The position numbers were made by a program, and so were the translations under genes. Positions 24,113 to 31,883 of a stretch of DNA of 64,000 nt are shown here, piece after piece. The stretch is from a bacterium. Its GTDB lineage: Bacteria > UBA8248. The stretch's first letter is position 1. Every line of letters begins with the position of its first letter. The stretch is from positions 2,976,001 to 3,040,000 of the forward strand of contig OZ241875.1 of assembly GCA_965203325.1 (NCBI GenBank), read 5' to 3'. A model generated the notes under the pieces. It had not been told where the DNA came from and made no database searches. It saw only the letters and a program-made list of their open reading frames with translations.

Positions 24113-25762
24113 ATGGCGAAGCCCAAGGATAACGGCGCGAAAAAAGAGCGCCCCGTCCGCGATGCGGCCTACAACTCGGGCAAGCCCGTACCCGTGGTCT
24201 ACGGCCCGCAAACGCCGGATGCTGCGTATCAAGAAAAAATCGGCGCGCCGGGGGAATACCCCTACACGCGGGGCATCTACCCCACGATGTACCGGGGCTC
24301 GCTCTGGACGATGCGCCAGTACGCGGGGTTTTCCACCTCGGCGGACACCAACGCGCGGTTTCACTTCCTGCTCGGAAACGGCCAGACGGGCCTCTCGATG
24401 GCCTACGATCTGCCCACGCAACTCGGTCTCGATTCGGACGATGAGGCCGCGCAGGACGACGTGGGCCGCCTGGGCGTCGCCGTGGACACCGCCCAGGACA
24501 TGGCGGACGTCTTCGAGGGGATACCGCTCGACAGGGTGAGCGTCTCGCACACCATCAACTCCACCGCCGCCATCATCCAGGCGTTCTGGCTCATCGCCGC
24601 CGAGCGCCAGGGAGTCGCGCTGGACAAGCTGCGCGGCACCTTCCAGAACGACATGCTCAAGGAATACATCGGCCGGGGCACGTGGATATTTCCCCCGCGG
24701 CCCTCCATGCGTCTCGTCGCCGACATCATCGAGTACAACGCGAAGCATTGCCCGCGCGTGAACGCTGTCAGCGTCTCGGCCACCCACATCGCCGAAACGG
24801 GCGCGACCCTCGCGCAGGACGTCGCCTTCCCCATCCTGAACGCGCTGGCCTACATACGCGAACTCACCGGACGCGGCCTCCACGTGGATGACTTCGTGCC
24901 CACGATGTCGTTTCATCTATCTATCGGCGGAGGCGTGGGGCCGTTCAACCTGCTCGAATCTATCGGCAAGCTGCGCGCCGCGCGCCGCATCTGGGCGCGC
25001 ACGATGAAGGAGAAATACGGCGCGAAAAACCCGAGGACCATGCAGCTCAAGTTCTCGACCGGCAATTGCGGCAGCCGCATGGCGGCGCGCGAGCCGCTCA
25101 ACAACATCGTGCGCCAGACGCTCTACACCCTGGCCGCCGTTCTGGGCGGCACGCGCTCGGTCAACATGGCGTGCTTCGACGAAGCCTTCGAGATTCCCTC
25201 GGACGAGTCCATCCGCACGGCGTTGCGCATTCAGCAGGTCATCGCCCATGAGAGCGGCGTGGCCGACACGGTGGACCCGCTGGCGGGCGGCTACGCGGTG
25301 GAAGCCGTGACGGATCAGGTGGAAGAGGAGATTCAGGCCATCGTGGACGATTACGAGTCGCGTGGCGGCATCGTTCCCTTCATCGAGAGCGGGGAAATCC
25401 AGAGGCTCCTCGCGCGGCAGGCCTATGAGCACCAGCGCAAGATCGCGGAGGGCGAGCAGGTGTGGGTGGGGGTGAACAAGTTCACCTCCGAGGAGGAAGA
25501 CCGCATGGGGGCGGGCGAGGGCCTCTACGAGGCGGACGATTCGGCGCTCGAGAAACAAATGGCGCGTCTTGCAGAGGTGAAGGCCGCCCGCGATGAGGGC
25601 GAAGTGGCTGCGCAGCTCGAAAGGCTGGCGAGGGCGTGCGAGTCGAAGGAGAACCTCGTGCCTTATCTCATGGACGCCGCCCGGGCGCGCCTCACGGTGG
25701 GGGAGATGACCGGGGTGATGCGCGGCGCCTTCGGCGCTTACGTGGAGCCGTCGGTCGTTTGA
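24113..25762 (+). CDS. B12-dependent acyl-CoA mutase, large (substrate-binding) subunit; methylmalonyl-CoA mutase family
   Basis: PGEYPYTRG, WTMRQYAGF, GLSMAYDLPTQ, QNDMLKE, DPLAG, VGVNKF. Confidence 0.93.
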   Translation: MAKPKDNGAKKERPVRDAAYNSGKPVPVVYGPQTPDAAYQEKIGAPGEYPYTRGIYPTMYRGSLWTMRQYAGFSTSADTNARFHFLLGNGQTGLSMAYDLPTQLGLDSDDEAAQDDVGRLGVAVDTAQDMADVFEGIPLDRVSVSHTINSTAAIIQAFWLIAAERQGVALDKLRGTFQNDMLKEYIGRGTWIFPPRPSMRLVADIIEYNAKHCPRVNAVSVSATHIAETGATLAQDVAFPILNALAYIRELTGRGLHVDDFVPTMSFHLSIGGGVGPFNLLESIGKLRAARRIWARTMKEKYGAKNPRTMQLKFSTGNCGSRMAAREPLNNIVRQTLYTLAAVLGGTRSVNMACFDEAFEIPSDESIRTALRIQQVIAHESGVADTVDPLAGGYAVEAVTDQVEEEIQAIVDDYESRGGIVPFIESGEIQRLLARQAYEHQRKIAEGEQVWVGVNKFTSEEEDRMGAGEGLYEADDSALEKQMARLAEVKAARDEGEVAAQLERLARACESKENLVPYLMDAARARLTVGEMTGVMRGAFGAYVEPSVV

Positions 25763-26175
25763 TGGCGAACGGGAGCAAGCGCATACGGGTGCTGATGGCG
25801 AAGCCGGGCCTCGACGGGCACGACCGGGGGGTCAAGGTCATCATCCATGCGCTCAGGGACGCCGGCATGGAGGTGATCTATTCGGGTCTCAGGCAGACGG
25901 TGGAGCAGATCGTCTCCGTCGCGATCCAGGAGAACGTGGACGTGATCGGCCTGAGCATCCTCTCGGGCTCCTACATGGGGATTGCGCGCAGGCTCATGGC
26001 GAGAATCAAGGAAGAAGACCTCGATGATTGCCTCGTCATCCTGGGCGGGAACATCCTGGAGCGCGACGTGGCGGGGCTCAAATCCTTAGGAATAGCCGAA
26101 GTGTTCAACCACCATGCGGAGATGGCCGAAGTCGTCTCATACATCAGGAACAATACGGCGACCGGCGCGGCCTGA
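25762..26175 (+). CDS. Acyl-CoA mutase cobalamin-binding small subunit
   Basis: KPGLDGHDRG (DxHxxG) and SxL...GG; TGATG translational coupling to the large subunit. Confidence 0.93.
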   Translation: MANGSKRIRVLMAKPGLDGHDRGVKVIIHALRDAGMEVIYSGLRQTVEQIVSVAIQENVDVIGLSILSGSYMGIARRLMARIKEEDLDDCLVILGGNILERDVAGLKSLGIAEVFNHHAEMAEVVSYIRNNTATGAA

Positions 26176-26190
26176 CGGCGGCGCATTTTC

Positions 26191-30579: not shown

Positions 30580-30722
30580 CTCAAGGGGGGAGTGATAGAA
30601 TCTCAAAGGAATAACTCCGCACCTCATCAGTTAGTATTGCTCCCCACCTTGCGCGCCCGTGCGAGTCGTTGCATAACGGATTCTCGCAAGCTACCTCCAC
30701 TCTCACATGAAAGGAGGCCGCG

Positions 30723-31883
30723 GTGGACTTCGACCTCACCGAGTCTCAACGGGAAATCCGGCAAAAAGCCCGTGAAATCGCCACGAACCAGATAGCGCCC
30801 AGGGCGGCGCATTGGGACGAGACCGAGGAATACCCCTGGGAGAACGCCCGTATACTCGCGGATGCGGGATTCATGGGCATGAACATCCCCGAGGAATTCG
30901 GCGGACCCGAGCGTCCGCTCATCGAGGCCGTCCTGGTGGTTGAGGAGATGGCCAAGGTCTGCGGCATCACGGGGCGCATCGTGGTGGACTCCAACATGGG
31001 CGTGGTGGGGGCGATCATCAAGTATGGCACCGAGGAGCAGAAGAAAAAGTATCTGCCCATGGTGCTCGCAGGCGATAAGCCCGCCATCGTCATCACGGAG
31101 CCCGAGGCCGGGAGCGCGGCCACCGACATGACGACGCGGGCCGTTCTCGACGGCGACGAATATATATTGAACGGCAAGAAGAAGTGGATCACCGGCGCGG
31201 GCGTCTCCCACATCAACCTCGTGTTCGCCCGCGTGGTGCACGGCGGGGACGAGCAGGGAATCGGCGCCCTGATCGTGGAGTTGGGTGCGGAGGGCTTCCG
31301 CATCGGGGAGCGCGCCTTCATGATGGGCTTGCGGGGGATTCCCGAGAGCGAGGAGATCTTCGAGAACTGCCGCGTGCCGAGTGAAAACCTGGTGACGGTG
31401 GGTTTCGGCCGCCTGATGGCCGCCTACAATGCCCAGCGGGTGGGAGCCGGCACGGTGGCCTTGGGGCTCGCCGAGGGCGCCTTTGCGCAGGCGGTGGAAT
31501 ACGCGAAAAAGCGCGAACAGTTCGGCCGCCCGATATCGGAGTTCCAGGGGCTTCAGTGGATTCTGGCGGACGGCCGCATTCAACTCGACGCAGCGCGGCT
31601 CCTGCTCCACCGGGCGGCGGTGCAGGAAGACCCGAAGACGGGCTTCCCCGACATGCACCTGGCCGCCATCGCCAAGACGTTTTCGGCGGAAGCCTCGATC
31701 AAGGTGACGAACGACGCGCTCCAGATTTTTGGAGCCGCGGGCTATTCGCGCGATTTGCCGATAGAGCGTATGGCGCGCGACGTGCGGATGTTCACCATCG
31801 GCGGCGGCACGACCCAGGCGCAGCGAAACGTGATAGCGTCCGGCATTTTCGGGAGAAAATTCTCACAGCGCCGGGGAGGGTGA
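30723..31883 (+). CDS. Acyl-CoA dehydrogenase-fold protein, 3-sulfinopropanoyl-CoA desulfinase-like
   Basis: GRIVVDSNMG, GDKPAI, EQGIGA, MGLRGIPE, AYNAQRVGAG and RMFTIGGGT match the recalled Advenella Acd desulfinase; no catalytic Glu. Confidence 0.8.
   Translation: MDFDLTESQREIRQKAREIATNQIAPRAAHWDETEEYPWENARILADAGFMGMNIPEEFGGPERPLIEAVLVVEEMAKVCGITGRIVVDSNMGVVGAIIKYGTEEQKKKYLPMVLAGDKPAIVITEPEAGSAATDMTTRAVLDGDEYILNGKKKWITGAGVSHINLVFARVVHGGDEQGIGALIVELGAEGFRIGERAFMMGLRGIPESEEIFENCRVPSENLVTVGFGRLMAAYNAQRVGAGTVALGLAEGAFAQAVEYAKKREQFGRPISEFQGLQWILADGRIQLDAARLLLHRAAVQEDPKTGFPDMHLAAIAKTFSAEASIKVTNDALQIFGAAGYSRDLPIERMARDVRMFTIGGGTTQAQRNVIASGIFGRKFSQRRGG

Follow-up and report, generated by a model that had tools for sequence, protein, structure and literature searches.

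Does a gene cluster in which a B12-dependent acyl-CoA mutase lies ahead of a desulfinase-like flavoprotein encode a single organosulfur pathway? The question is raised by positions 24113-31883 of a 64,000-nucleotide stretch of bacterial DNA (lineage UBA8248; contig OZ241875.1 of assembly GCA_965203325.1, forward-strand positions 2,976,001 to 3,040,000), to which we refer throughout as the window, and which belongs to a genome that is a single contig of 4.39 Mb. A first-pass annotation of the window had read a split acyl-CoA mutase, a family III CoA-transferase, a HAD hydrolase, a crotonase and, behind an insertion sequence (IS), a flavoprotein of the acyl-CoA dehydrogenase (ACAD) fold as one candidate pathway, in which the mutase prepares a sulfino-acyl-CoA for the flavoprotein. 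Our analysis shows instead that mutase and desulfinase are two separable modules, whose link is confined to one genus and can be broken, and we favour with moderate confidence the explanation that an uncharacterized module of a carboxylated-acyl-CoA mutase and a CoA-transferase stands beside a desulfinase module that was acquired later.

Separability of the mutase and desulfinase genes

To follow the two genes we searched all 51 genomes of the phylum in full, counting the mutase at an identity of at least 71% and setting the desulfinase threshold at E<=1e-120. The genomes counted are kin, and the tallies below are to be read as one history and not as independent trials. The window-type mutase is present in 28 of the 51 genomes, spread over five genera. 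In 17 of these 28, all of genus g1, the desulfinase gene lies 2.8-5.0 kb downstream of the mutase on the same contig, while in two others (G016 and G022) it sits on separate short contigs where adjacency cannot be judged. One further genome (G037) carries it on another contig, near an ABC transporter, an amidase, a thiamine pyrophosphate (TPP) enzyme and a second ACAD-fold gene, and in one (G039) a homologue of 58% identity, at a distance of 2.9 Mb, is all that was found. In the remaining seven (G034, G028, G010, G011, G013, G041 and G038) no desulfinase gene was found at this threshold, the absence in G028 being that of the whole-genome search only, as its contig stops at the CoA-transferase gene. 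These seven span the four other genera and include one g1 genome.

The reverse arrangement is also found. Genome G025 (locus L207; 99% complete) keeps the HAD, desulfinase, PGDH-like and short-chain dehydrogenase/reductase (SDR) genes and ruvB, and has lost the mutase, its small subunit, the CoA-transferase and the crotonase. Because the HAD gene of genus g5 is followed directly by ruvB, the crotonase, desulfinase, second ACAD-fold, PGDH-like and SDR genes are a block that g1 carries between HAD and ruvB, and this block is variable within the genus (loci L016, L202 and L207). We also inspected by eye 28 distant desulfinase-type loci (50-59% identity, mostly from Alphaproteobacteria); a family III CoA-transferase occurs at two of these, but a mutase lies within 10 kb at none. 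The linkage of mutase, CaiB-type transferase and desulfinase in relatives free of the IS, which the first-pass annotation had proposed to look for, holds in 16 g1 genomes and is confined to that genus.

Age of the insertion sequence

The IS1182-family element that separates crotonase and desulfinase in the window (29055-30590, +; NF033551, 283 bits) has imperfect inverted repeats of 29 nt (29055-29083 and 30562-30590), and no direct repeat flanks both of its ends, in agreement with the missing target duplication that had been noted before. Its transposase is frameshifted, with the first ~76 residues in another frame, and is 93% identical to a 484-aa copy at 58294-59748 when aligned from residue 77 of that copy. 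The element is absent from 10/10 relatives with a readable crotonase-desulfinase spacer. In the 99%-identical genome G026 the distance from mutase to desulfinase is 1520 bp shorter than in the window, about the length of the IS, and in 16 other genomes of the genus the desulfinase gene stands 2.8-3.9 kb behind the mutase with no IS. Among 14 species-representative loci with the same mutase (84-97% identity), 10 have the desulfinase directly behind the crotonase, with a spacer of 52-404 bp and no transposase; three of the others are on contigs that end earlier, and L016 lacks the crotonase and both ACAD-fold genes. Because relatives without the IS keep the gene order and G026 is shorter by the length of the element, we conclude that the element entered the crotonase-desulfinase spacer recently, at the level of the strain, and that the gene order is older within the genus. 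The earlier concern that the IS itself had brought the genes together is therefore removed by the 16 IS-less genomes of the genus with the same order.

In public sequencing runs the contig depth over the IS is more than 10x that of its flanks, and the element is therefore multi-copy in the community. None of the short Logan contigs mapped bridges an IS junction, one weak IS-less joint occurs in run X3 (side 25, depth 5.8), and the coverage of RNA run X21 falls mostly on the multi-copy IS. The insertion lies inside a 21-nt host palindrome (29015-29035 / 30577-30597). In the IS-less locus L005 (14940-15250) a spacer stretch of ~250 bp has a left end that resembles the IS inverted repeat (CTGTTGAAAAA) and may be a miniature derivative or remnant of the element. 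Two more full-length IS1182-family transposase genes lie head to head in the window at 56585-58036 (-) and 58294-59748 (+), encoding 483 and 484 aa.

The conserved mutase and CoA-transferase unit

Pfam and NCBIfam profile searches assign every gene that the first-pass annotation had named, all on the + strand and in the order it gave; gene starts were refined from relatives and from the sequence itself. The mutase large subunit (24113-25762, +; 549 aa; PF01642, 583 bits; start set by relatives) is followed by the B12-binding small subunit (25762-26175, +; 137 aa; PF02310 and TIGR00640, with a GLDGHDRG motif), whose ATG overlaps the large-subunit TGA by one base (TGATG), an arrangement of translational coupling. 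Behind them come the family III (CaiB/BaiF) CoA-transferase (26191-27399, +; PF02515, 440 bits), a HAD-IIA, NagD-like hydrolase (27411-28199, +; TIGR01460, 138.7 bits, above cutoff) and a crotonase-family enoyl-CoA hydratase (28223-28978, +; PF00378, 179 bits), with gaps of 15 nt between small subunit and CoA-transferase, 11 nt between CoA-transferase and HAD and 23 nt between HAD and crotonase, the crotonase start being preceded by a GA-rich, ribosome-site-like stretch.

We observe that the CoA-transferase gene comes directly after the small subunit in every locus with continuing sequence, that it was lost together with the mutase in G025, and that its distribution follows the mutase and not the desulfinase. 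Moreover, the same order of large subunit, small subunit and family III CoA-transferase recurs at 5/5 metagenome loci of a sister clade (L290, L291, L294, L296 and L310), which come from unrelated metagenomes and carry a mutase 57% identical to that of the window. The transferase itself is 53% identical to its counterpart in the same position of the sister clade, and 43% identical to the best of 18 paralogues in its own genome. The conserved unit is the mutase large subunit with its small subunit and the family III CoA-transferase, and it is much older than the bacterial family. No desulfinase gene occurs at any of the five sister-clade loci, and the single ACAD gene found near one of them (L310) has the 'IYEGT' of an ordinary dehydrogenase. 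TctC, TctA, TRAP or MFS transporters flank these triads, and in 3/5 of the loci a family I (AcetylCoA_hydro) CoA-transferase gene stands in the opposite orientation. The best solved relative of the window transferase is succinate-hydroxymethylglutarate CoA-transferase (9br7, 291 bits), and no NCBIfam equivalog cutoff is reached. A literature search of limited coverage returned no paper in which a family III CoA-transferase is linked to this mutase or to methylmalonate.

The other two genes of the cluster are less firmly attached to this unit. The HAD-IIA gene, whose relatives in the Protein Data Bank (PDB) are NagD and p-nitrophenyl-phosphatase types, follows the CoA-transferase in this bacterial family only, is absent behind the sister-clade triads and is retained in L207, which has no mutase. 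The crotonase, most similar among PDB entries to 3-hydroxypropionyl-CoA dehydratase (5zai, 153 bits, barely above generic crotonases), likewise reaches no NCBIfam equivalog cutoff; it is absent in L016, L202, L207, G023, G034 and all other genera, and is part of the genus-specific insertion. A carnitine (cai) reading of CoA-transferase, crotonase and ACAD-fold protein was also considered and rejected, as all three fall far below the Cai equivalog cutoffs.

Active-site residues and phylogeny of the mutase

We mapped the mutase on methylmalonyl-CoA mutase (MCM) of P. shermanii (1req), adding one to the sequence index to arrive at the numbering used in the literature. The carboxylate-binding and catalytic residues Tyr89, Gln197, Arg207 and His244 are retained by the window mutase and by 120/120 of its best homologues. 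Tyr89 and Arg207 bind the substrate carboxylate in MCM, their places being taken by Phe and Gln in isobutyryl-CoA mutase (ICM) and by Ile and Gln in 2-hydroxyisobutyryl-CoA mutase (HCM). Since both are kept, the substrate of the window mutase probably has an anionic group, as methylmalonyl-CoA does. The residues of ICM and HCM are not those of the window mutase, which has Tyr and Arg where the aligned 4r3u shows Ile and Gln; ICM-like relatives carry 'RQFAGF' and 'AQKEW'. Other pocket positions have changed: Tyr243 to Thr, His328 to Ser, Gln330 to Gly and His364 to Asn in the window mutase and again in 120/120 homologues, and Asn366 to Ala in the window mutase and to Ala, Pro or Gly in the others. 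Where solved enzymes have the conserved pocket motifs SGYH, H-x-Q-T and H-T-N, the window mutase accordingly reads SATH, S-T-G-N and N-M-A. The scores against NCBIfam models point both ways, at 591.7 bits for TIGR00641, an N-terminal domain subfamily with a cutoff of 303.8, and at 513.6 bits for the equivalog NF006944, whose cutoff is 876 but which describes a fused 721-residue enzyme.

Among the 120 best homologues, 10 clusters with identities of 70-97% make up the window clade, while a large group has identities of 53-58%. In a maximum-likelihood tree of 62 rows (LG+G4, SH-aLRT) the window clade has a support of 100 and lies inside a Thr243-type clade with a support of 99, the order of the window clade and two other Thr243-type subclades being left unsettled by this quick tree. 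A second sister subclade, at 54% identity and known from four loci of metagenome-assembled genomes (MAGs), has the same Thr, Ser, Gly and Asn at positions 243, 328, 330 and 364. Its neighbourhoods hold an upstream carboxyltransferase (4/4), an epimerase-type glyoxalase (3/4), a family I CoA-transferase (2/4) and OadB (2/4), and because this subclade, one of the two nearest with readable context, sits in operons of the methylmalonyl-CoA pathway, the changes at the four positions occur in enzymes of methylmalonyl-CoA context. An alignment-based scan for Thr243-type loci, built on generic patterns, returned 80 loci, most of them (70) with the canonical SGYH.

Besides the window mutase, the genome encodes three large subunits: one of canonical type, whose motifs are all those of solved MCM, one of HCM type and another variant that has a crotonase gene beside it. 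Three small subunits were found. The complete HCM-type operon (G000:C1:3157000-3163000; L206:8111-13909) holds a B12 subunit, an AMP-dependent CoA ligase, MeaB and the large subunit, a layout that presumably corresponds to that of Aquincola, and the motifs 'RQIAGF' and 'AQKEF' of its large subunit match those of the Aquincola 2-hydroxyisobutyryl-CoA mutase in the 4r3u alignment. Near the third paralogue, at L205:13510-15735 (-), lies a 741-aa protein of the DUF3604/CehA-McbA metallohydrolase families, which has a 741-aa paralogue in the window at 7985-10210 (+).

Identity of the flavoprotein

The gene at 30723-31883 (+; 386 aa) encodes a protein with all four ACAD Pfam domains, whose best solved relative is the desulfinase AcdDPN7 (5af7, 432 bits), well ahead of the next chain, a butyryl-CoA dehydrogenase at 289 bits. 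Its 'IGGGT' aligns to 'IAGGT' in 5af7 and to 'IYEGT' in the dehydrogenases 5ol2_C and 3pfd_A, and from this replacement in the alignments it follows that the catalytic Glu of the dehydrogenases is missing. The key residues Arg84 and Gln246 of AcdDPN7 have an Arg and a Gln as their counterparts in the window protein, whereas the dehydrogenases differ at both positions; 'TGRIVVDSN' aligns to 'MGRITVDSN' of 5af7, and 'YNAQRVG' is identical in both. Against NF042439 the protein scores 552.5 bits, under the cutoff of 600, with the next family at 349 bits. Loss of the catalytic glutamyl residue is described for 3-sulfinopropionyl-CoA desulfinase in an excerpt of one published account (PMC9293079). 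Taken together, these features bear out the desulfinase-like character claimed at first and suggest that the protein is a close relative and a probable, though not certified, isofunctional member of the desulfinase family.

A second ACAD-fold protein of weak SfnB/DszC likeness (32410-33717, -; Pfam and NCBIfam) follows, and its gene travels with the desulfinase gene both in genus g1 and in G037, where no mutase is near. At that G037 locus (L208; G037:C37) the desulfinase gene is flanked to one side by genes for an amidase and an ABC transporter of peptide type, and to the other by the second ACAD-fold gene and a gene for a TPP enzyme that resembles acetolactate synthase. One such TPP-dependent protein, 'IlvX', is likewise reported as induced in the thiodipropionate cluster of Variovorax, in the excerpt of the study to which we refer (PMC6370202).

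Proposed model and alternatives

From the gene identities, residue states, distribution and neighbourhoods that we observed we infer substrates, a direction of reaction and a possible cooperation as follows. The old and conserved module A consists of the Thr243-type split adenosylcobalamin mutase and the family III CoA-transferase, with HAD-IIA added in this bacterial family. Its transferase would take CoA from succinyl-CoA and place it on a free di- or tricarboxylate brought into the cell, and its mutase would then rearrange the carboxylated acyl-CoA, the likeliest reaction being that of (R)-methylmalonyl-CoA to succinyl-CoA. The two enzymes might thereby form a closed cycle, in which the transferase moves CoA from the mutase product to the incoming acid and the mutase regenerates the donor thioester; with methylmalonate and succinyl-CoA as the pair, methylmalonate would become succinate, and neither ATP nor another enzyme would be needed. 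Such a cycle is suggested because mutase and CoA-transferase always travel together, and its independence of ATP and of other enzymes would fit module A having no other conserved partners, while the TcuA gene of G013 and the tricarboxylate transporters of the sister clade leave room for another acid. Module B, which was inserted behind module A in one genus, comprises the crotonase, the desulfinase-type flavoprotein and the opposite-strand second ACAD-fold gene, and would release sulfite and propionyl-CoA.

Whether the two modules cooperate in genus g1 through propionyl-CoA and succinyl-CoA we regard as evenly balanced. If they do, the transferase would activate 3-sulfinopropionate, a succinate analogue, the resulting propionyl-CoA would undergo carboxylation and epimerisation by enzymes whose genes lie outside the cluster, and the mutase would return the product to succinyl-CoA. 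As annotated at first, genes for MeaB, a carboxyltransferase and an epimerase are missing from the window; the rest of the genome has two MeaB genes, one epimerase (at cutoff) and one carboxyltransferase, as well as one CDO-type thiol dioxygenase, the type that makes 3-sulfinopropionate from 3-mercaptopropionate, ~0.5 Mb from the window module. According to excerpts of two reports, 3-sulfinopropionate is activated in the model organisms by SucCD or by a succinyl-CoA-dependent family III Act (PMC5373536, PMC6370202). In Advenella, according to the first of these excerpts (PMC5373536), the methylcitrate-cycle genes have acd, mdo and the gene of a family III acyl-CoA transferase as neighbours, and in Variovorax, according to the second (PMC6370202), acdA and act are adjacent open reading frames. 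Because acd of Advenella adjoins both a family III transferase and the methylcitrate-cycle genes, a desulfinase clustered with propionyl-CoA disposal has a precedent.

Several observations weigh against the preferred explanation of a methylmalonyl-CoA-type module beside a later desulfinase. The stem of the window clade is long (0.52 substitutions per site), position 335 is Arg in 10/10 of its members and Gly in 110/110 of the others, and the clade also has Cys at 332 and a 2-residue loop insertion; this stem and these changes next to a pocket motif may mean a substrate other than methylmalonyl-CoA. The canonical-type paralogue makes a second methylmalonyl-CoA mutase look redundant, and no MeaB gene adjoins the window mutase. 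In genus g2, a TcuA-type FAD-dependent tricarballylate dehydrogenase is encoded between the CoA-transferase and HAD genes of G013 (L196:4288-5859, -; NF006130, 594 bits against a cutoff of 369), and its place within the operon hints at a different, tricarballylate-like acid. For the third Thr243-type subclade no gene context was obtained, the P0088 scan yielding nothing above 46% identity. As for the independence of the modules, the tight spacing of the genes and the 52-bp crotonase-desulfinase spacer of two relatives would allow co-transcription, so that a functional coupling within the genus is possible. Finally, every substrate named here is one that we infer from sequence.

The reading that competes most seriously is that the mutase of module A has a new specificity and, with its CoA-transferase, isomerises a free carboxylic acid of another kind, such as one related to tricarballylate, or ethylmalonate with methylsuccinate as the product, that the module has nothing to do with sulfur, and that the desulfinase is a mere neighbour. 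We hold this to be possible but unlikely. The long stem and pocket-proximal changes of the clade, the canonical-type paralogue already present, the Thr that stands where all solved mutases aligned have Tyr243 (4r3u; human MCM 8gju and 2xij; 1req), the in-operon TcuA gene of G013 and the tricarboxylate and TRAP transporters beside the sister-clade triads all point in its direction. However, the 54% sister clade has the same changes at 243, 328, 330 and 364 in operons of methylmalonyl-CoA type, family I, ScpC-like CoA-transferases at 5/9 Thr243-type loci argue for succinate or propionate chemistry, and TcuA was seen in a single genus. A bolder proposal, that the Thr243-type mutase and the CoA-transferase constitute an undescribed, CoA-recycling isomerase of free acids and that the window clade may have gained a substrate new to acyl-CoA mutases, is speculative and rather improbable as it stands; one candidate may be an acyl-CoA with two anionic groups, for instance the half-ester of a tricarboxylate, and the least likely one is a succinyl-CoA analogue that carries a sulfinate.

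The pathway put forward in the first-pass annotation, in which a B12 mutase would rearrange a branched sulfino- or sulfo-acyl-CoA to 3-sulfinopropionyl-CoA and six genes would serve one organosulfur route, now appears very improbable. It could draw on the co-oriented, tightly spaced genes, on the desulfinase behind the mutase operon in 17 g1 genomes, on the clade-specific Arg near a pocket motif and on the handling of 3-sulfinopropionate by the succinate enzymes SucCD and Act, as far as the available excerpts go (PMC5373536, PMC6370202). Yet the module stands without a desulfinase in 7/28 genomes and at 5/5 sister-clade triads, the desulfinase stands without the mutase in G025, no mutase lies within 10 kb at any of the 28 distant loci inspected by eye, the carboxylate-binding residues of MCM are kept, and one sister clade sits in methylmalonyl-CoA operons. 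The chemistry may be problematic as well, for a carbon radical beta to a sulfinate would be expected to fragment, making the rearrangement awkward, and we know of no natural source of 2-sulfinopropionate, although no literature search was aimed at one.

A conversion of succinate to propionate similar to that of Sbm, for which scpA-argK-scpB-scpC of E. coli is the model operon, would use the mutase to make methylmalonyl-CoA, the crotonase to decarboxylate it and the CoA-transferase to recycle CoA. The gene classes are similar (mutase, crotonase family, CoA-transferase), but the crotonase scores 134.7 bits against the methylmalonyl-CoA decarboxylase model NF008506, where the cutoff is 257, and is missing from the module outside g1 and in G023 and G034, and the transferase belongs to family III and not to family I; we consider this route highly unlikely. 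We keep to the explanation of a carboxylated-acyl-CoA module with a later desulfinase neighbour.

Other features of the window

Upstream of the mutase and transcribed away from it lies an SDR oxidoreductase gene (23146-23925, -; NCBIfam), followed further out by an ATP-grasp gene (21903-23156) and a NifU-like gene (21299-21847). This flank is conserved even in L207 of G025, which has neither mutase nor CoA-transferase, and the SDR gene is probably not part of the mutase module. Beyond it are tandem paralogous bicupin genes (19359-20258 and 20307-21164, +; ~42% mutual identity), which together with a Zn-dependent alcohol dehydrogenase gene keep their synteny across the genus. The TauE-family protein (40340-41083; PF01925, 61 bits) and the arylsulfatase-like gene (62397-63908; NCBIfam) that had been cited alongside the proposed pathway do exist in the window, but they lie 8.5 kb and 30 kb off, and ruvB, yebC and polA were identified between them and the module region. 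An Rfam search of the window revealed no cobalamin riboswitch and matched only a tmRNA (60874-61234, +; RF00023, 168.6 bits), which adjoins smpB, and promoter and terminator scans gave no excess over shuffled controls. Runs labelled 'sponge metagenome' contain 0.21-0.34 of the sampled words of window positions 27400-31900, which is a habitat hint only.

Significance

If the explanation we prefer is true, what was proposed as one B12 sulfur pathway comes apart into two modules of kinds already known, and a costly search for a sulfino-acyl-CoA mutase is spared. The MAG records of the relatives are labelled Nitrospinota, and a gene of the 3-sulfinopropionyl-CoA desulfinase type is widespread in one genus so labelled, which on the same reading would extend the route from organosulfinates to sulfite beyond Proteobacteria. 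There also emerges a large, uncharacterized clade of split acyl-CoA mutases without Tyr243, fixed in two subclades beside a family III CoA-transferase, and this pairing suggests an ATP-free isomerisation of free dicarboxylic acids.

Comparison with known systems

The window flavoprotein shares its full-length ACAD fold with AcdDPN7 of Advenella mimigardefordensis (5af7/5ahs) and AcdA of Variovorax paradoxus TBEA6, and similar to both organisms its gene has a family III CoA-transferase nearby. Unlike these systems, however, its host belongs to a different phylum, its neighbour is a B12 mutase instead of methylcitrate-cycle genes, and no thiol dioxygenase gene adjoins it, the sole CDO-family match being the distant one mentioned above. 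The CoA-transferase has the full-length PF02515 domain in common with SUGCT (9br7), YfdE (4hl6), Frc and Act of V. paradoxus, and its best solved relatives use dicarboxylates, with succinyl-, acetyl- or formyl-CoA as donors. Among solved chains the mutase scores best against HcmAB of Aquincola (4r3u, 455 bits), with which it shares the split architecture, although HcmA has Ile and Gln where the window mutase has Tyr and Arg. With MCM (1req; human 2xij) and the split archaeal and bacterial forms it has in common the full-length PF01642 domain and Tyr89, Gln197, Arg207 and His244, and with the split forms also a separate B12-binding subunit with a DxHxxG-type motif. It differs from MCM in a 5-residue insertion relative to the solved enzymes and in the altered positions 243, 328, 330, 364 and 366, and from MCM systems in that no MeaB, epimerase or carboxylase gene is adjacent and that a family III CoA-transferase accompanies it in every case.

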